From: Mayamaea pseudoterrestris
Taxonomy: Eukaryota
Reading direction: 5' to 3'
Assembly (NCBI GenBank): GCA_027923505.1
Contig: BROI01000002.1
Span: 372,001-436,000, forward strand
Length of the DNA: 64,000 bases
Shown here: piece after piece, positions 52,778-64,000 of the stretch
Position numbering within the stretch: position 1 is the stretch's first letter
Layout: every line of letters begins with the position of its first letter
Translations under genes and position numbers: made by a program
Notes under the pieces: generated by a model
What the model was told of the DNA's origin: nothing
Database searches by the model: none
The model's input: the letters and a program-made list of their open reading frames with translations, nothing else

Positions 52778-53398
52778 GGTCTACTAATTTGGCAAAATGA
52801 ATTACAAAGACCAACATAAATTTGTGCGATACTGTGACGGACGATATCTTTTACAGGTAAACCTAGATTGGGCTCTCAACAAGGCGTCCCTTGAAAGTCC
52901 CAAGATTTCGCATTTCATCGCAAGGCTAAAGCGTCAATGAGTTCCACAATACATTTGCACGCGCAATGGGATGTTTCTTTAGCATTTCTCTGTTCATTCA
53001 CAATGTATTACAAATTGTTGCATATGCGAACATAGCGGTATCTCTTGCGTCTCGAGTCTAAATGAACTTTGCCTCAAGTGGGATAGCTCGCAATCGCATC
53101 GGTATTAACTGCGACATTCGAAAGGCGAAGAACGACGCGCGATGACGAAGAAGTGATGGCGACGATGCACACTTCTTGGAGACCTAATCACTTTTGAGCT
53201 TGATCAGTGCTAAACAAGTAGATTATTAGTATCCAACTAGCGACATCCAGCGCATATAGAAGAGACTCCTGCAGTGCCAGTCAACACGTTCTTGCTTCCT
53301 TTAAACTCAAATCTCAACCAATATTCGCTGCTATTCGGCAAGCTGCACGTTTCGCTTCAGCCATTACAAGCGAGACTTGGACGCGTTTCAGTTCAAGC

Positions 53399-54556
53399 AT
53401 GACTGTTAATGAAAGAAATAATGTCAATGATGAAACTAATATACGACAAGAGACAGCTCCTGAAGTGCATATTCGTCGGCATGCGACCCAAGTCGCCATG
53501 GAAACCCTTTCCTACAAGTCCATTGTCAACAGCGTCACGGCAGGCTACGTGGCTGGTGTTTGCGGAACCGTCATTGGACATCCATTTGATTCGGCCAAGG
53601 TATGGTTGCAAACCAAGGACTATTCAGTGGTTGGAACAACGAGAAGTGTCAGTAGCAGCAACGCAACTGCAGCAAACGTGGCATCAGCCGCATCGCCTGC
53701 AACATCAATCAGCAGCAACAACAACACCTTTCAGTTCACTACTCTTCGACAATACGCCACAAAATCATTGGATTACACGCGAGCACTATACCGAGGCGTC
53801 TCTGGCCCGTTACTAACCGTCGGCCTCGTCCAGTCGGTCAACTTTGCCGTCTACGATGCCTCGCGGCGCATGCTGTACGGACTCGATTATCCGGATCAAG
53901 CTTCCTCGGGCAAAAGTCTCGACTACTTGCACCATGACAGTTTAACGAACGTGGCCATGGCCAGTGCATTCTCCGGTTCCGTCTTGTCACTTTTTACGCT
54001 GCCAATGATTACCATCAAGACGCAGCAGCAGGTGCGCAACGTAAGCTTGCGGCAAGCTTTGACGGAACTGTCGTGGAGGCAGGCACGTCGGGCAATGCTT
54101 CCGCACGTTGCCACGGAGACGGGTGGACGGGCCATTTACTTTGGCACGTATGAAGGACTCAAGCGATACTTGCTCGCGTATCAGCAGCAGCAATCGGCAC
54201 TGCAGCAACTGCCATCAAGTACGTTTCATCACGACACATCATTCACCCTACACAACGTCAAGCACGACACCAAGATTAGCCTGCAGCAACGCATGCTTTG
54301 CGCCGCCGCCAGTGGCTTGACCTGCTGGACGGTCATTTTCCCACTCGACGTTCTTCGGTCTCGCCTGCTGGCTGGTCACGACGCGACGGCTCACGTTAGC
54401 GCGTGGCAGGCCACCAAGGACTTGTATAAACAGTCTGGTGTTCGCGGCTTTTACCGGGGCTTTTCCGTGACAGTCTTAAGGGCGGGGCCAGTCGCGGCGG
54501 TGGTGTTGCCCATTTACGATGTGGCGCTGGAGGCACTGTCGGCGTGGAATGTTTGA
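53399..54556 (+). CDS. Mitochondrial carrier (SLC25, carnitine/basic amino acid-like)
   Basis: PFDSAK and PLDVLR signature motifs, LYRGVSGPL, GFYRGF. Confidence 0.88.
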   Translation: MTVNERNNVNDETNIRQETAPEVHIRRHATQVAMETLSYKSIVNSVTAGYVAGVCGTVIGHPFDSAKVWLQTKDYSVVGTTRSVSSSNATAANVASAASPATSISSNNNTFQFTTLRQYATKSLDYTRALYRGVSGPLLTVGLVQSVNFAVYDASRRMLYGLDYPDQASSGKSLDYLHHDSLTNVAMASAFSGSVLSLFTLPMITIKTQQQVRNVSLRQALTELSWRQARRAMLPHVATETGGRAIYFGTYEGLKRYLLAYQQQQSALQQLPSSTFHHDTSFTLHNVKHDTKISLQQRMLCAAASGLTCWTVIFPLDVLRSRLLAGHDATAHVSAWQATKDLYKQSGVRGFYRGFSVTVLRAGPVAAVVLPIYDVALEALSAWNV

Positions 54557-56203: not shown

Positions 56204-57493
56204 TCACACAATCTGAATTGACGGCGCGTCATCCATAGACGCTGACAATGGCTCCCTTTTCGTATCATCAGATTCATGGTCGTTAGCCTTATCATTGCTA
56301 TCATCGCCCGCTAGGTTCACCACCAGAAAACCGATCGACACGGCGACTGCGCCTGCAAAAGACAAAACTGTCCCGACGGCCTTGCCAAGCATGGCATCGG
56401 CCAAGAACGCCATGGGTATCGTCAATCCCAATCCAACCGTGGCAATGGTGGCATTGGTCAAAATGATGGAGCGAAACAGCAGATAGTCGGTCAATACAAA
56501 GTCCATTGCTCCTTTGATCAGAATCAGTCCAAAAATGGCCCATGTGAGCTGGATCTGCGCACTCGCAAGAATGTAAATGGCAACCGGCAGTAGCGGAACA
56601 AAGCAAAAGCAGCCAATGTAGCCCAGTAGCAGCTGCATGCTATACAGTTCCTCATTCTGGGGACAAAAGACGCGAACCTGAATTGTATAGACGGCGTAGC
56701 CAACAGCCGCTAGTACAGCAAACAAGTCTCCGTAGACTGCCGACTTGTTGTTGCTGCTCATTGCCATCATGTCATCATTGCCAACGTCGAAGATGCTGCT
56801 GCTTTCGTTCGAGTCCTGAACGGCCGTCAGCGCCGTCCCAACCACGCTCAGCAACACTCCCACCAGTTTCGCATGACGGTAACCTTCCAATCGCAAAAAG
56901 ACTGCCAGCAGAAACACCAGGACCGACTGCGTCGACACCAGCACGGTGGCCGATGCCACGGACGTGTTGGAGAGTGCCGCGTTAAAGGCCCAGTCGGCGC
57001 CAAACATGGCGGGCGCAATGTATGCAGCAGCCATGACGTGTTTGGAATGGTTCCAAACGGAGATATGGTCATGGATGAGATTGTGCGATTGATGGATTAT
57101 TAAGTTGTAGTAATCGGATATTCGCGACGCCTTGGTAGTCTCTTGGCTAAAGTCTGCATAGGAGGCAACGCTTGACTGATGCGATTGGGACACTTTGCTA
57201 TCAGAATTAGCTGACTGATGTGATTGAGTTATTTTGCTGTCAATACTAGCAGCCTTGTCTTTCGTCCTCGCATTCCGTCGATCCTGCATCAGCTTGACTG
57301 GAAGAAAGACTGCAAGCAAGGACATGCCAATGTAGCTCATGAGAAAGGGCGACTGAAAATTTAGGGCGTCATACAAGTATTGCGTGATTATGGCGGCAAG
57401 AATCCAAACAATGCATTGCAGAAATATGAACAAGAGTCCAAGCACGTAGCGATATGCCGCCGGATTGGTCAACGAAGATAGTGTGTAGTTCAT
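56204..57493 (-). CDS. DMT/EamA transporter, SLC35F5/Thi74-like
   Basis: About 10 TM helices; SPFLMSY, NAALSNTSVAS, GDLFAVLAAVGYAVY, TVGLGLTIP. Confidence 0.87.
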   Translation of the reverse strand: MNYTLSSLTNPAAYRYVLGLLFIFLQCIVWILAAIITQYLYDALNFQSPFLMSYIGMSLLAVFLPVKLMQDRRNARTKDKAASIDSKITQSHQSANSDSKVSQSHQSSVASYADFSQETTKASRISDYYNLIIHQSHNLIHDHISVWNHSKHVMAAAYIAPAMFGADWAFNAALSNTSVASATVLVSTQSVLVFLLAVFLRLEGYRHAKLVGVLLSVVGTALTAVQDSNESSSIFDVGNDDMMAMSSNNKSAVYGDLFAVLAAVGYAVYTIQVRVFCPQNEELYSMQLLLGYIGCFCFVPLLPVAIYILASAQIQLTWAIFGLILIKGAMDFVLTDYLLFRSIILTNATIATVGLGLTIPMAFLADAMLGKAVGTVLSFAGAVAVSIGFLVVNLAGDDSNDKANDHESDDTKREPLSASMDDAPSIQIV

Positions 57494-57884
57494 GATGAGA
57501 ATGGAATGTGCATGGCTTATGGCTCACTCCTTACTCTCGTTGGCTGTTGGCTTGCTTCCTGCTTTCAGCTGCAACGAAAACTAAATGTGACTTGCAGATG
57601 TCTTCGGTTCAGTTGCAGTTTCGAATGTTGAGAGCACCGCGTAAGTCAAACATGGCTGTTGCTTCGTTTGCGAGGTCGTTGGCCGTTTCAACAATCCGTT
57701 TGACTCTCGAATGTGAAGCAGCCTTTGGCATTTGATGCTCGACACCCTGCCGCCCGGCGTTCGAGCGCGACGAGCCTCGCTAAGCAAGGCGTTCCGTCCT
57801 AACAAAGCCCTGCGTTTGCCTTGCGCGGTCGTGACAAGTGCGTCCTGCCTCTAAATAGACTTGGATACTTAGAGAAATGTCACT

Positions 57885-57895
57885 TGGCGAGCCAG
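57885..57895 (+). other. Primer-binding site TGGCGAGCCAG (tRNA-Arg type)
   Basis: Lies 2 nt after TGTCA and is complementary to the ...CUGGCUCGCCA 3' end of a tRNA-Arg. Confidence 0.72.
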
Positions 57896-58048
57896 TCACG
57901 CCAGCGTGTTGGCGACTCAACAGCTCCTTCCACGGTGCTGGTTTCGATCCTTTTTGCCTCACACCCCTTGACCGACGAGCATCTCCTGCCTCTTCTGTCT
58001 CCTTTTGTTGCTCCTTTGCTCCTTTAACCATCTAAACAAGCCTTTATC

Positions 58049-61000
58049 ATGTACTTTGGAAACGCTAGCCAGTCTCTAACTAGTAGCCGCTCGCTCGGAG
58101 CACCCCAAGCTTCAAATGGCACCCGAAGTGGGGACGACGGACAAGATTTGCAGTCACCGTTCCATCAAGGCGGAGGCAGCTTTTCTGCCGTTGTTACGAC
58201 CCCTACGCACCAACCAACTGGTTTACCAAGCAAGCCTCCTGTTACCGTCAACCTTGGAGACAAGGGACAGGCGACTGTCATGGCGATTCCTTCCTTTGGA
58301 GCCGATCCAGCCATCAAGGCGCATGCCTACGACTCCATCCTCCGTCAACTCGAAGGGACGGGCGCTACTAGTAACGCCATTGCCTCTGCCTTCCTTACCA
58401 TCTTTGATGGCGTCATGTCTACTAAAGCGGCCGTCAATGCTGCTATTAAAACGCAAGCTGAGTTCCGTGACAAGCTTTTCAAAGTCAAGTTCATCGAGGA
58501 TTTTACTTTCCTTTCAAGCGACGGCAGCGACATCAAAGGAGGCCTCGATCCTAATCCAAGCAAGCGCCCCGACGACATCAAGTATGTTCGCATGCACTTG
58601 CGTATCCCGGTCAAGGAGCTCCGTCTCCATGCTCACATTGTCGCCAAGGAAGACATTCGCCTCACCGGCTGCCTCGAACTGCCGACGACTTTTCCCTTGA
58701 TGGACATGACGATGCCGACGATGGCCATTACCTCCCTCAGTGTTGATCATTTCGGCTCCTCTGCTTATTCAACGCCCAATATGACGCGCAAACGCAAGAC
58801 CAACATTGAAACGACGGCAGCTTCGACGCGTTCCGGCAGCACCAAGCGCGGAGCACCTCCACCCGTCGAAGGAGGTGCGGGCCAGTTGGATGCGGGCCAG
58901 TCAGGCGGATCCGGCCGCGAAGCGACACCTCCAGCGACACCTCCACCAGCAACACCTCCACCAACCACTGGTGACGATTCAAATGCTACTGTCGAGGCGC
59001 CTCCAACTGCTACTGTCGAGGCGCCTCCAAAGAACACCTTCACCTTTGGTACATTTGCCGGCCCAGCAGGCATTATGGATCAGCAGCTCGAGTTTGATGA
59101 GGTCTTTGGTCCTCAACCATGCCTCCTCTTTGTGGAAAAGGACAAGTATTCGGCCAAGATCAACAGTTCTACTGTCACTAACAACATCAAGAAGATTGAT
59201 CAAGAGCTCTACTGCAGTGTCTTTCTGTCGATTTACCGCGAGCATTATGTCGGCGAAACATCTACAGCTCCTTCTCTGCAGAGCAACATGGATCTTATCC
59301 AGCGCCTTCAACAAGTCAAGCTCTCGACATGCCCGACCATTGCCGACTACCTGCACCGCTTCGTCAGTCTCTCTGATGATCTAAAGGGTGAGCCTGTCGA
59401 CTGGATGTGCGACATTACCGAGCTCTTCTACAATAACCTCTCCACCGACGTCAAGTCCGCCTTGGCTACCAATCCTTGCTTCTTCAAACCTGAGTCACGC
59501 CATTTCCAATGCGCCGATGAGCACCGCGCTGGCATCTCCGTCATCTGGAATCTTGCCAATAAGGAATATCAACGCCTTGCGGATCAAACCTCCTCCATCA
59601 TTGCTGCTATTGAGCTCAAGCAGCAGTCCCTCGCCGCCCATGCCGCCCAGGCTGCTCACGCCGCTCATCATGGCGTTCAAGTCTATCATGATCAACATTC
59701 TTTTCACTTGCCAACTACTGCATCTCCAAGCCGCCCACCGTCTGGCCGTAATCACGTGACTTTCAACGACTCACCATCGGGTATCCTGCGCCCAAGTCAC
59801 CTCTCCGCCTACAACTCTTCCCCAGCTGAACAGACTCTCCGTCGCTATCAGTCTCCTCTCTCGGCTGCTATTCCAGATGGAGCAACTTACACGTATTCCA
59901 TCTTCCCTTGGCTTCCGCCCCACATTCGCAATAACCCTTCTGAAGTGCATGCACCTCGCCCTCGCAACACTCGCATTTGCCTTTGGTGCTTTGAGACTGG
60001 CCATACCTTCCGCCAATGCCCTGCCGAAGGGTCTCGCACGCCTGAAGCTGAGCAACAATTCTTCTCCAACTGGAATATTGCACGTGGCATGATTATTGAG
60101 GACCGCGCTAACCGTGAATCCAGAGCCAGTCTCCGCCAAGCCAACCCTGCTTCCAGCACTACTTCACAGTGGCAACCATCGGCCGCCGTCGCCGCTCATC
60201 ACACTACTGCTCACCGTCACATTAATAACGAGCCTTCTTGGATGACTCGAGATGCAGCTCGCTCCTCGGCCGCACCCTCCGCTCCTCCCCAACCTGACGA
60301 TGACGTGCACTTCTCCGCGCCCTCCTACTTTGGTGCCATTGCCTCCTACCGCATTCAGGCTCAACCAGCTCCAGGCGCCGTTGTTCCTTTTGCCAATCCT
60401 GTTGATGACAATCTCCCTTTCATCACCTTTGTCATCGGTTCTACTGGCAATGACTTCCCCATCACCGCCCTTTTCGACACGGGTTCCACTTCAACTTTGG
60501 GCAACAAGTCCTACCACATCAAATTCTCTGCCGATCATCCATCCGCTGTTGCCAAGTGGTATCACGCCGGCGACAGCATCAACCCAGCTGTTGCCATGGG
60601 ACTGACCGGCATTGTGGCCGATGACGGCCGGCCATCTACCACCTGCCTCAACGACATTGTGGTTTACAACACTCCTGTTGGTGAATGGTCCGTTGCAGTT
60701 GGAGATCATGTCAGCCTACCTACTGTGATGGGCCGCGCCGATCAAAAGCGCTTTGACATGTACTTGATGAAGGTGAACGGCAAGGATGTGATCCGCTCTT
60801 TCAAGCATCGGCAAGACTACACAGTCATCTACCGTCCTCCAACGAATATTAGCCCTCTTCCTCCAGCCACTTCAGCGGCTATCCATCCCTCTTTACCGGT
60901 ACCTTCTCCTCCAGTTGCTCATGCCGCCACCCTCCTACCAAGCCTCGCACCCTCGCTACCTTCACCACCAATTGCAGCCATTCCACCTCCTACTGAGCCC

Positions 61001-61105
61001 TCGTCTCCAGCCTCCTCTCATCCATCCTTGGACGTCCCTTTCGGCACTCATCTGGCGTCCGTCAACAACCTCGCTGAGCACTTGGCCACTAACCGCCCCA
61101 TCTAG
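58049..61105 (+). CDS. Gypsy ORF1: Gag with zinc knuckle plus aspartic protease
   Basis: CLWCFETGHTFRQC (~59978-60019), ALFDTGS and VMGR protease motifs; ends at TAG 61103-61105. Confidence 0.85.
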   Translation: MYFGNASQSLTSSRSLGAPQASNGTRSGDDGQDLQSPFHQGGGSFSAVVTTPTHQPTGLPSKPPVTVNLGDKGQATVMAIPSFGADPAIKAHAYDSILRQLEGTGATSNAIASAFLTIFDGVMSTKAAVNAAIKTQAEFRDKLFKVKFIEDFTFLSSDGSDIKGGLDPNPSKRPDDIKYVRMHLRIPVKELRLHAHIVAKEDIRLTGCLELPTTFPLMDMTMPTMAITSLSVDHFGSSAYSTPNMTRKRKTNIETTAASTRSGSTKRGAPPPVEGGAGQLDAGQSGGSGREATPPATPPPATPPPTTGDDSNATVEAPPTATVEAPPKNTFTFGTFAGPAGIMDQQLEFDEVFGPQPCLLFVEKDKYSAKINSSTVTNNIKKIDQELYCSVFLSIYREHYVGETSTAPSLQSNMDLIQRLQQVKLSTCPTIADYLHRFVSLSDDLKGEPVDWMCDITELFYNNLSTDVKSALATNPCFFKPESRHFQCADEHRAGISVIWNLANKEYQRLADQTSSIIAAIELKQQSLAAHAAQAAHAAHHGVQVYHDQHSFHLPTTASPSRPPSGRNHVTFNDSPSGILRPSHLSAYNSSPAEQTLRRYQSPLSAAIPDGATYTYSIFPWLPPHIRNNPSEVHAPRPRNTRICLWCFETGHTFRQCPAEGSRTPEAEQQFFSNWNIARGMIIEDRANRESRASLRQANPASSTTSQWQPSAAVAAHHTTAHRHINNEPSWMTRDAARSSAAPSAPPQPDDDVHFSAPSYFGAIASYRIQAQPAPGAVVPFANPVDDNLPFITFVIGSTGNDFPITALFDTGSTSTLGNKSYHIKFSADHPSAVAKWYHAGDSINPAVAMGLTGIVADDGRPSTTCLNDIVVYNTPVGEWSVAVGDHVSLPTVMGRADQKRFDMYLMKVNGKDVIRSFKHRQDYTVIYRPPTNISPLPPATSAAIHPSLPVPSPPVAHAATLLPSLAPSLPSPPIAAIPPPTEPSSPASSHPSLDVPFGTHLASVNNLAEHLATNRPI

Positions 61106-64000
61106 GGGTGCCGCTCAGTGAGTAGCCTCGCTGAGCCTTCGTCATCTTTTGCATCATGGCCGGCCGCTCCATTGACCGACTCTGCCTGCCAAGATAATGT
61201 TTCAGCCAAGGCCTTTGCCATTGACGTTCCTCCCAAACGATGGCGCCCCAAGCCGCAAGCTGCCTACCATCCCACTGATGAGTATAACCTGCCCGACAGC
61301 TTCTTCATTCACCGGAAACTTGGCAAAGGAGCGGTTGATGTGAGCATTGACGAGCTGCCTCCTCGTGATGACCTCCTGCATTATGATTCCCTCAAGCACA
61401 AACCATTCATGGAGAAGCACCTCAAGATCGATGCCACTTGCCCTGCCAACATTGCAGCTATCATCAAGGAAACAATCATTCGCAACTTTGATGCATTTGA
61501 TGAGGAAGGCGTCCGACGCCCTGCTAGAGGCATTCTCTTTCACATTGACACTGGCAGTGCTCAGCCCATCTGCGTTCCTCAGCCTCGCTACGGTGTGCAT
61601 GAAGCCCCCATCATGCAACAGCAAATTGATGCTCTCCTCCACAATGGCATGATCAAGCGCAACTATGGACCATGGGCTATGAAACTTGTCCTTGCTCCCA
61701 AGCCCCACCAAGAAGACATTGAGGACATCACTGATTTCATCTGGCGCATGTGTGTCAACTTCCAGCCACTCAACAAGATTACCCTCCTCTTTCGCTACTG
61801 GATTCCCCGTTGCGCCGACGCCTTGCAACTTCTCAATGATAGCCAAGGCCCCTTGTTTGCTATCAGCGTCGATGCCGACAGTGGCTTCCACCAGATTGGA
61901 GTCACCGACGAGACACATGATAAGCTGGCATTCTGGGGTCCCGACCAGCAGAAATATGCCTACACAGTCATGCCATTCGGTCCTACCAACTGCCCTTCCG
62001 TCTTCCAGTGCCTCATGGGCAAGGTCACTGATTACTGCAAGAAACTGATTGCTGCAGGTCTTCCACCAAGTCAAGCAGCCTCCGGCGCCATGTATGTCAT
62101 CAAGAATGTGATCGACGATCTCCTACTGCTCTCCAATGACCGTCACTACCTTTGCTACGTCTTTGACTGCCTCTGTCAAGCATTCATTCACTTCCGGCTC
62201 ACCTTCAAGTTGAAGAAATGCGACTTCTTCTTCAATCGCCTGGAATGGCTTGGTCACGACTGGACTCCCTCTGGCAATGTTCCTGCCCAATCCAAGTTTG
62301 ACTTGATCCGCAACTGGGCCTTGCCCACAACGTCGCAAGCCCTCAACTCCTTCGTCAGCTTCTGTGGCTTCTACCGCAATTACCTACCTTTCTTTGAATA
62401 TATCATCACACCACTTCGCCAGCTTATCCGACAGCACAAGCACTCATCCATCCCTCATACCGCCTGGTCTCCAGTTCTCCTCAAGCTTTTCAACCAACTC
62501 AAAGCCGCCATCACATCTTCTCCCTGCCTAGCCCGTGCCGATTCCTCTACACCCTTCTTCATCAAAACTGACTGGTCTGCCAAGAGTGTTGCCTCCATTC
62601 TCATGCAACCAGACAACTCCGCTGCCTCTCGAGCTGCACTTCTCGCCATGGATGCTGGTGCAGCATGCGCCTTTGACAAAACCAAATCTGGTGCCCGCCT
62701 GCGTCCTATCAGCTTCAACCAGCGGAATTGCTCGGAAATTGAGACCCACTATCATTCCTTTGTGGGAGAGGCCGCGGCTGGTCGCTACGGCATTCACATT
62801 AACCGTCACTTCCTCTGGGGTAAGAAGTTTTACTGGCTCTGTGACTGCAATGCCATCTCTGCACTGCTTTCCTACGAGGGTGACAACCATCTCCTTCGGC
62901 GCTGGGCCATGGACCTTCTTGGCTATACCTTCGAGATCATCCATCGTCCTGAACGCATGATGCAAGATGTTGACGCCTTGAGCCGCCATTACGCACACTG
63001 TGATCCCTTGGTCCGGCAATATAACCTGCAGAGTGATGCCTTGCGCGCCGCCAGCTTCACTGCCAACCCAAGTCAGTTTCTTCCCGTTCCCATGAGTGCA
63101 CTTTCTGCACGAGGCTCCTATATTCCACCAAGCCAGCCTCCCTCAGCTACCTCCACCGCTGCCTTCTCCATCATGGATCCCCTGCCCTCGCCTGCCACTG
63201 TGCCTTCTACGCTATCAACATTCAGCACCATTCTCTGCAGTCATGGCATTCGCTCCTCCGCACGTCAATCGCCTACCAGCGTCATACCAGCCAACCCAAC
63301 TGCACCTCCTACCCTTCAGCACCTCCTTCATTGCGGAGTCAATGTTTCCTCCCCTGTGCACTCCTCTCCCTTGCCCGTCTGCAGTGACTCCAGCGCCATT
63401 GCATCCCACCTTGTGCATCAGCACTATCTTCCCTGGTTATCCATCAATAGCCCACCTGGCGTCCATGCCCTCAGCCATGACTGCATTTTGCCATCAAATC
63501 TTCTTCTGCTCCATCAGTGTGATTCTCGCCGTCAACTCTGTCAGCGCCTCCACTCTGCAAGCATTCATCGCACCTACGACCCGACAGCCCCCATCTTGTC
63601 CGATGCATCAACCCTTGCTGGCTTCTCTTCCTTCGCTGGCTGCGACTCTACCTACTCACCACGTGACGGCCTTCTTTCCACATGGTTATCCTCAACTCTT
63701 GCCCTCTTCACTGGCCTCAGTCACTCCCATGCTCTGCGCCACTTTGTCATCATTATTCCAACGACCATGAGCCCTTCACCATCCTCTACATCAAGTCCAC
63801 CTGCCTACCCTGACTTTGTTGCACCATGTCTTCATCTCCATTCCTCCTCTTGGACAAGCCATGCCTCCATCTCCTGGAGCCAGGACTTTGGTGATCGCAT
63901 TTCTCGAGGCACTCTCTACATTTTTGGTGTCTCCACCTCGGTTGCCGACTGCTCTTCCTTGCTCTCTGCCATCAGCACATTGCCTACCCTCGGCGCGGAT
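61106..64000 (+). CDS. Gypsy Pol (RT - RNase H - extra domain), same frame as ORF1, open to window end (absent from ORF track)
   Basis: Hand translation gives WRMCVNFQPLN, VDADSGFHQI, MPFGPTN, NVIDD, KCDFF, WLGH; RNase H KTDWS, VGEAAA, LCDC, DVDALSR. No stop was seen up to 64000. Confidence 0.9.

Follow-up and report, generated by a model that had tools for sequence, protein, structure and literature searches.

How does a retrotransposon express its reverse transcriptase (RT) when the open reading frame (ORF) that runs towards it is closed by a stop codon? This question is raised by a 64,000-nucleotide (nt) stretch of Mayamaea pseudoterrestris DNA (GenBank assembly GCA_027923505.1, contig BROI01000002.1; G000:C2:372001-436000 in our coordinates), here called the window, which carries close to its end a young Ty3/gypsy retrotransposon of the long terminal repeat (LTR) kind whose stop codon is located after the protease (PR). 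All features of the element lie on the + strand. ORF1 (58028..61105), an open frame of 1,025 codons ending in TAG, encodes Gag, a zinc knuckle, the PR and a proline-rich tail; ORF2 (61106..64000, on to G000:C2:438775), 1,889 codons in total, encodes Pol without a PR, uses the frame of ORF1 and stays open to the end of the window and beyond. As the original prediction, made from the sequence alone, had claimed, nothing except TAG separates the two in-frame coding regions. It had further proposed that Pol is made by readthrough of this stop, and our sequence comparisons make programmed readthrough on a single mRNA probable (about 85%): a hairpin that follows the stop covaries, and no relative with a fused PR and RT was found among 53 loci.

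The junction stop (61103..61105) is a UAG in the context UAG-GGG. It is followed by a 7-nt spacer, GGGTGCC (61106..61112), and by a 10-bp stem with a UAGC tetraloop and one G-U pair (61113..61136; arms 61113-61122 and 61127-61136), a candidate readthrough stimulator; spacer and hairpin are as they had been described, coordinates included. The hairpin has a fold energy of -18.3 kcal/mol (z -2.5 against dinucleotide shuffles), and when it is folded within 123 nt of sequence its base pairs reach probabilities of 0.89-0.91. Because it is the sole perfect stem of at least 10 bp in the 10-kb stretch scanned and begins 7 nt past the stop, its presence goes beyond chance.

A pattern search for the hairpin yields four occurrences in 30.6 Mb of the same genome, every one located behind a junction TAG of this gypsy family, and the reversed control yields none. 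TAG-GG, the 7-nt spacer and the hairpin are kept in all four copies, namely the window element and the copies termed C3, C12 and C1; the context is UAG-GGG in the window and C3, and UAG-GGA in C12 and C1. The C3 copy is 94-95% identical to the window element, and its Pol is frameshifted, with TAG and hairpin unchanged. C12 and C1 form a second subfamily, with an RT 65-66% identical to that of the window. ORF2 of C12 is intact (1,858 codons) and its ORF1 broken; ORF1 of C1 is intact (1,074 codons), and a frameshift lies about 30 codons past the TAG. The C12 hairpin is likewise the only perfect stem of at least 10 bp in that copy's 10-kb stretch. Spacer length is constant, and spacer sequence differs between the subfamilies except for the first GG (four of seven positions are purines in the window, six of seven in C12).

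The distance between the two subfamilies gives these constancies their weight. Amino acid identity over RT and RNase H (RH) is 64%, and four-fold sites across ORF2 match between the window and C12 at 153 of 465 positions, that is, they are saturated. Inside the stem-loop, third positions nevertheless match at 8/8 sites as against 0/4 in the flanks, and the loop is kept. Two base pairs have changed in a compensatory manner between the subfamilies (A-U to G-C and G-C to C-G), altering amino acids, and all 40 of the 40 cells in the stem alignment are paired. Kept third positions together with compensatory pairs that cost amino acid changes thus indicate that selection acts on the pairing itself. 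In run X1, which is possibly the source sample and is not independent, one contig with C3-type variants crosses the stop and retains the TAG, and no splice joints were observed; this run has no bearing on splicing.

Other structures around the stop were also considered. An 11-nt duplicate of the hairpin 3' arm lies upstream of the stop (61069..61079) and is able to pair with the 5' arm; a switch built on this repeat was rejected, since it is outcompeted by the local hairpin in folding and absent from C12 and C1. A short stem able to enclose the stop itself is also missing from these two copies. The 4-nt loop leaves little room for a pseudoknot, a type of structure that the programs used cannot predict. 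Searches of Rfam gave no recoding-element match at the junctions at E values up to 10 (sub-threshold unrelated matches only) and no gathering-level match in 15 loci, and nothing in the viral_contigs set matched either the hairpin pattern or the Pol alignment.

Is this arrangement peculiar to one genome? A search of proteins of 1,165-3,325 amino acids (aa) gave 68 close Pol relatives, mostly 1,700-1,900 aa long. The best 80 of 231 metagenomic stretches encoding a relative, combined with the four copies described above, made up 84 sequences. Thirty-one lack an upstream PR and were excluded from the junction count: 28 of them have less than 900 nt upstream of the RT anchor (one, L076, being a decayed PR-deletion copy), L060 and L093 carry unrelated upstream DNA, and L105 has an integrase (IN) upstream. 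In 48 of the 53 sequences that hold both PR and RT, a single stop interrupts the frame that the two share, and in none of the 53 are they fused; the five that differ are C1 and the loci L103, L107, L109 and L111 of a sister clade. One further locus, from the genome_contigs set, shows a single in-frame TGA at the junction. The proteins give the same picture: no PR occurs in the 68 Pol relatives, and no RT in the protease relatives, 35 proteins of 301-2,000 aa. P0155, a Chaetoceros protein, is the only one of the latter with an organism label, which points to a diatom-like host. Four apparently fused members (L044, L079, L085 and L096) were rejected: their tblastn alignments had crossed the stop, and re-anchoring finds TGA in each. 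A sense codon in place of the stop, which would have spoken against the original prediction, was thus sought among sister copies and found in none.

Grouping the 48 one-stop sequences at 90% identity leaves 34 clusters, and at 70% it leaves 19. ORF2 carries a clade-wide conserved motif, P-x-K-x-W-x-P-K (61220..61255), located near codon 39 and 5' of the first AUG of ORF2. The linkers from the PR to this motif span 63 to 337 codons in the 34 clusters at 90% identity and keep the frame in all of them; over their 3,991 codons the coding frame holds 34 stops, and the two alternative frames hold 80 and 165. No AUG precedes the motif in 22 of the 34 clusters, the window element included, and one is present in 12. 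Among the excluded sequences, L105:1-1855 shows the C-terminal sequence of an IN continuing in frame into the region next to the RT, and neither a stop nor Gag or PR intervenes; it represents either a permuted contig or an element of different gene order. The clade member L116 (JAHEJY010000105.1) lies on a low-coverage 8.8-kb contig of a bacterial metagenome-assembled genome, a contig that is probably mis-binned.

The choice of stop codon at the junction is biased. The 34 clusters use TGA 30 times, TAG four times and TAA not at all. For comparison, 16 ORF2 ends were read, and after removal of a duplicate and of one sister-clade locus the remaining 14 comprise eight TAA, four TAG and two TGA, none of them TGA-C (junction versus ends, p = 8e-6). 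C follows 20 of the 30 junction TGAs as against 334 of 1,246 off-frame TGAs (27%; p = 8e-6). These Fisher p-values are indicative only, since related clusters are counted as independent. The commonest junction context is TGA-CTA, found in seven of the 34 clusters. Two of the four TAG clusters are of the form TAG-CARYYA (L038, TAG-CAATCA; L098, TAG-CAACTA), matching the type I motif of PMC3159437, and the other two are TAG-G plus hairpin. In the Beier-Grimm classification (PMC3159437; PMC13517186), UAG-CARYYA is type I, UGA-C type II, and UAG-G plus structure type III. All three classical classes of readthrough signal are thus present at one and the same junction. Stable local hairpins are restricted to the Mayamaea copies (z -2.7 to -3.7; mean over 35 rows -0.1), L057 having a small 5-bp stem (z -2.7). 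This restriction to the type III copies agrees with type III signals needing structure and type I signals not needing it. The expectation that TAG-GG and a covarying hairpin are conserved in kin therefore holds for both subfamilies of this genome and fails elsewhere, where UGA-C without local structure prevails.

The sister clade bridges the same split differently. L102-L104, L107, L109 and L111 cluster with a support of 94 in a quick tree that sets the clade apart from five outgroup rows (Shimodaira-Hasegawa-like approximate likelihood ratio test only; L084 omitted as too short; the base is unresolved and the order of signal changes not given). In the four sister loci with a PR (L103, L107, L109 and L111), the stop of ORF1 is followed by non-coding DNA, and in three of them this spacer runs for about 190-230 nt before the last upstream stop is reached. 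Candidate phase-2 introns are present at L109:915-1141 (length 227 or 245 nt) and L111:1356-1490 (length 135 or 192 nt); each has a GTGAGT donor that overlaps the stop of ORF1, and its excision would restore the PR-RT frame. AT-rich spacers (GC content 0.24 and 0.28) followed by an early AUG are found at L103:2547-2772 and L107:2693-2883. An AUG stands 3-5 codons past the last upstream stop in L102, L103, L104 and L107, and no convincing splice donor was found in these four, where ORF2 might be reached by re-initiation, by internal entry or from a second promoter. Given such differing junctions, the split between Gag-PR and RT would be older than the device that bridges it, as far as a tree with an unresolved base can tell.

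The mechanism that we infer for the window element starts from one LTR-driven mRNA, translation of which would yield Gag-nucleocapsid-protease and terminate at the UAG. A minority of ribosomes would accept a near-cognate tRNA at the UAG and continue into RT-RH-(methyltransferase-like)-IN, giving a readthrough polyprotein of about 2,900 residues. In the window subfamily, the leak would be set by a type III-like signal consisting of UAG-GG, the 7-nt spacer and a 10-11-bp stem-loop, the stem of which, lying 7 nt past the UAG, would be placed at the entry channel for mRNA and would delay termination, in line with proposals made for murine leukaemia virus (MLV) and alphaviruses. UGA-C (type II-like) or UAG-CARYYA (type I) would serve the remaining clade at the same junction. 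As an outcome, PR would be made 1:1 with Gag, and RT, RH and IN alone would be rationed.

Several points weigh against this reading. The covariation rests on two subfamilies and four sequences, that is, one independent contrast, and 10 of 500 shuffles reach its score. C at position +4 is missing in 10 of the 30 junction TGAs, and the clade as a whole shows no general 3' structure (the mean z of -0.1 given above). L068 is open for 186 codons ahead of the conserved motif up to the contig end, with neither stop nor PR seen. The spacer of 7 nt is shorter than the at least 8 nt of most tested animal-virus cases (PMC13517186); one of 7 nt has been predicted for the furovirus coat protein gene (PMC3159437). 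The MLV-like junction of the Candida element Tca2 gave no readthrough in a yeast reporter (PMC2194720). Finally, TAG|G also qualifies as a splice acceptor, and the window and C3 copies carry a branch-like CTAAC shortly upstream of it.

This last point leads to splicing as practised by the plant Ogre elements, in which the UAG would furnish the AG of a 3' splice site and a minority of transcripts would fuse PR to RT in phase 0, at the loss of part of the proline-rich tail. Ogre elements are spliced at just this junction (PMC6317226, which cites Neumann 2003 and Steinbauerova 2008), candidate introns that rejoin the frame exist in the sister loci L109 and L111, and the junction of the window element offers a YAG|G context, the branch-like CACTAAC (61087-61093; CTAAC kept in C3) and, in C1, a pyrimidine-rich run. 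CTAAC is missing, however, from C12 and C1, no strong phase-0 donor lies within 450 nt upstream in any of the four copies, and a GTACC-type site present in the window, C3 and C12 is absent from C1. A TAG acceptor cannot apply to the 30 TGA clusters, a frame-keeping intron with a strong donor could span the stop in just 4 of the 34 clusters, and splicing leaves a covarying hairpin 7 nt past the site unexplained; we regard it as improbable. Just as improbable, in our view, is that ORF2 is expressed on its own, be it from an internal promoter, by re-initiation or by internal entry, perhaps beginning at a codon other than AUG and with help from the hairpin. Precedent comes from the weak promoter at the Tca2 junction (PMC2194720), and the early AUGs of L102, L103, L104 and L107, the AT-rich spacers of L103 and L107 and the AUGs ahead of the motif in 12 of 34 main-clade clusters would fit. 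Yet separate initiation gives ORF2 no reason to stay in the ORF1 frame, to be preceded by exactly one stop or to avoid TAA, and the first AUG of the window ORF2 is codon 102 (61409), 60 codons beyond the conserved motif.

Two further explanations deny the stop any regulatory role. Were it sense to the host, through a variant code or selenocysteine, the predominance of UGA at the relatives' junctions would find an explanation; seven full ORF2s contain 33-44 TGG codons and no internal TGA, however, TGA and TAG also terminate ORF2, no SECIS (selenocysteine insertion sequence) or other Rfam family reaches the cut-off in 15 loci, and the stop of the window element is UAG. We consider this very unlikely, and we give practically no credence to an inherited nonsense mutation with RT and IN supplied in trans. 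Decayed copies do exist, as the damaged Pol of C3 and C1 testifies, but ORF2 is intact over 1,858-1,889 codons in two subfamilies that have kept 64% RT-RH identity at saturated silent sites, and a fused member was met in none of the 53 loci or 103 proteins. Programmed readthrough of the UAG consequently remains our preferred explanation.

How does this junction compare with known systems? Readthrough between Gag and a PR-containing Pol is established in gammaretroviruses, in the gypsy elements Tj1, Tosmo and Tcry1 and in the copia element Tca2. The likeness to MLV that had been proposed is partial. MLV gag-UAG-pol, a type III signal (PMC3159437; PMC8310308; PMC13517186), shares UAG-GG, a short spacer, a 3' RNA structure and an in-frame Pol, but it has an 8-nt purine-rich spacer, an H-type pseudoknot and a stop upstream of the PR catalytic motif; the window element has a simple tetraloop hairpin after 7 nt and a stop 85 codons after the PR domain. 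Among type III features, UAG-GGV (PMC13517186) and a conserved 3' structure are thus present, and the 8-nt purine-rich spacer and a stop between Gag and the PR motif are not. The statement that Ty3/gypsy elements normally frameshift or use one ORF needs correction, since the fission-yeast elements Tj1, Tcry1 and Tosmo1-3 (PMC4600332; bioRxiv 2022.12.06.519325) have a conserved in-frame TGA-CT, like the majority of our clade. In these chromoviruses, of which Tj1 is self-primed, the stop precedes the PR and divides Gag from PR-RT-IN; the window clade divides Gag-PR from RT-RH-IN, has no chromodomain match and uses several signal classes.

The same split as in our clade is found in Ogre (Tat lineage; PMC6317226), with GAG-PROT in ORF1 and RT-RH-INT in ORF2. 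There, a spacer of about 274 bp is bridged by partial splicing, whereas the main clade has a single in-frame stop and no spacer; an Ogre-type multi-stop spacer with splice signals is not seen in it (48 of 53 with one in-frame stop), and it is L109 and L111 of the sister clade that resemble Ogre. Tca2 of Candida albicans (PMC2194720), also an LTR retrotransposon, shares an in-frame stop, a purine-rich spacer and a predicted structure, but it is a Ty1/copia element with UGA before the PR, and its junction alone drove no readthrough in Saccharomyces cerevisiae. GyDi1 and GyDi2 (PMC2806351) are diatom Ty3/gypsy elements with the PR-RT-RH-IN order of the window element; according to that article, gag and pol are separated by a single stop or frameshift, or by none, in the majority of its elements, and its account, compared here by description, places no stop after PR and does not discuss readthrough in the portions covered. 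The article portions covered by our literature search held no account of protease-stop-RT readthrough, of readthrough in a diatom gypsy element or of readthrough in any stramenopile retrotransposon, with a precedent in Gao et al. 2003, Havecker 2004 or Steinbauerova 2008 not excluded. The position of the window stop is 211 codons downstream of the PR catalytic motif. An in-frame stop has also been listed for Kamikaze, a BEL element of the silkworm, and for RIRE2 of rice.

Since so much depends on the stop lying behind the PR, the identity of this domain deserves attention. The retropepsin-fold aspartic protease (60386..60847; DTG motif inside 60470-60487) was delineated by a clade hidden Markov model (E 8e-42) and a fold match; it has no Pfam match, and a profile match links it to Ddi1 (E 0.011). 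An AlphaFold model built with 28 relatives (predicted local distance difference test score, pLDDT, 82) matches Ddi1 and retroviral protease folds at E values of 1e-4 to 6e-4, so that structure modelling supports its assignment as a protease despite the silence of Pfam. Upstream of it lies a CX2CX4HX4C zinc knuckle (59978..60019), typical of nucleocapsid and aligned in relatives. ORF2 contains an RT core (PF00078; 61742..62257), an RH (PF17919, PF17917; 62465..62926) and, beyond the window end, an IN (PF17921), all detected with Pfam.

The element is bounded by a 4-bp target-site duplication, CGAA (57708..57711), whose twin lies beyond the window after the 3' LTR; the C3 copy has its own, CACC. 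The 5' LTR (57712..58116), identified by self-BLAST with its ends read, measures 405 bp and has TG...AA ends, and it is 100% identical over 406 bp (self-BLAST) to the 3' LTR at about G000:C2:439683-440087; the C3 LTR pair is 99.75% identical. Such identities indicate that the element has moved recently with the stop in place. The LTRs of both the window element and C3 terminate in AA, where CA would be usual. ORF1 has its first ATG (58049) within the LTR. Adjoining the LTR is a putative tRNA-type primer-binding site that starts with TGG (58117..58135); one pattern search found no tRNA matching it. A purine run precedes the 3' LTR. Among named proteins outside the clade, the RT matches Pol polyproteins labelled as gypsy or as retrovirus-related, at 22-29% identity. 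It is from the identical LTRs, the target-site duplication, the primer-binding site, the purine tract and the domain content, in the order PR-RT-RH-IN, that we regard the element as a young Ty3/gypsy retrotransposon with its stop 3' of the PR. A direct repeat of about 320 bp occupies its 3' untranslated region (G000:C2:438891-439553). The 3' region of C12 carries long tandem arrays, and a second LTR was not found within the 15 kb examined.

Between RH and IN, the window Pol carries a domain of about 380 aa with a C5 DNA-methyltransferase fold (63338..64000, on to G000:C2:436477 from G000:C2:435338). An insert of about 380-520 aa is present at this place in all 22 long ORF2s aligned, including that of sister locus L102. 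No Pfam match to the domain exists in ORF2; it is seen by language-model features and fold alone, 28 of the 30 language-model neighbours of the window domain belonging to the DNA_methylase set (the top score is 0.91, and feature overlap is low) and its model (pLDDT 71) matching C5 methyltransferases, M.HhaI among them, at E 4e-8. The catalytic Pro-Cys of motif IV is not evident in the alignment, and the domain is therefore probably inactive. A gypsy Pol with a C5-methyltransferase domain is also known from Klebsormidium (KnitGypsy-Dnmt3; PMC5890265), whose domain is related to Dnmt3 and has kept its key residues; that of the window element is far diverged. The word "diatom" is absent from the main text of PMC5890265.

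The host neighbours of the element are a mitochondrial carrier protein gene (53222-54556, +) and an EamA-family transporter gene (56204-57523, -), about 190 bp upstream of whose open frame it is inserted. Elsewhere in the genome, copia-type elements abut or interrupt fragments of this gypsy family (G000:C7:37136-43992 and G000:C1:1-4937), one of them being open over 1,954 codons.

The junction feature is real and clade-wide. Beyond this, the evidence tips modestly towards a broader view, in which an undescribed, old and widespread diatom-type gypsy lineage with a degenerate DNA-methyltransferase domain would ration RT and IN, and not PR, at a fixed junction, and would have swapped the device several times: UGA-C, UAG-CARYYA in at least two branches, UAG-G plus hairpin, and an intron or re-initiation spacer in the sister clade. 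It would be the first readthrough site after a protease, and UAG-G plus hairpin would, as part of the same view, represent convergence on the retroviral type III design. Scarcity of PR is part of Gag:Pol control in the known readthrough retroelements, as their published accounts have it; with PR made 1:1 with Gag, premature processing would have to be restrained by other means. Annotation pipelines are liable to file intact elements of this kind as broken. For experimental work, one junction with three textbook signals would permit matched reporter comparisons in a stramenopile, and the UAG-hairpin cassette, 34 nt long and thus compact, is a candidate for a tool with which readthrough could be tuned in diatoms. 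If the broader view is true, this gypsy lineage would provide a natural series in which three classes of readthrough signal, and splicing, are interchangeable for a single regulatory job.

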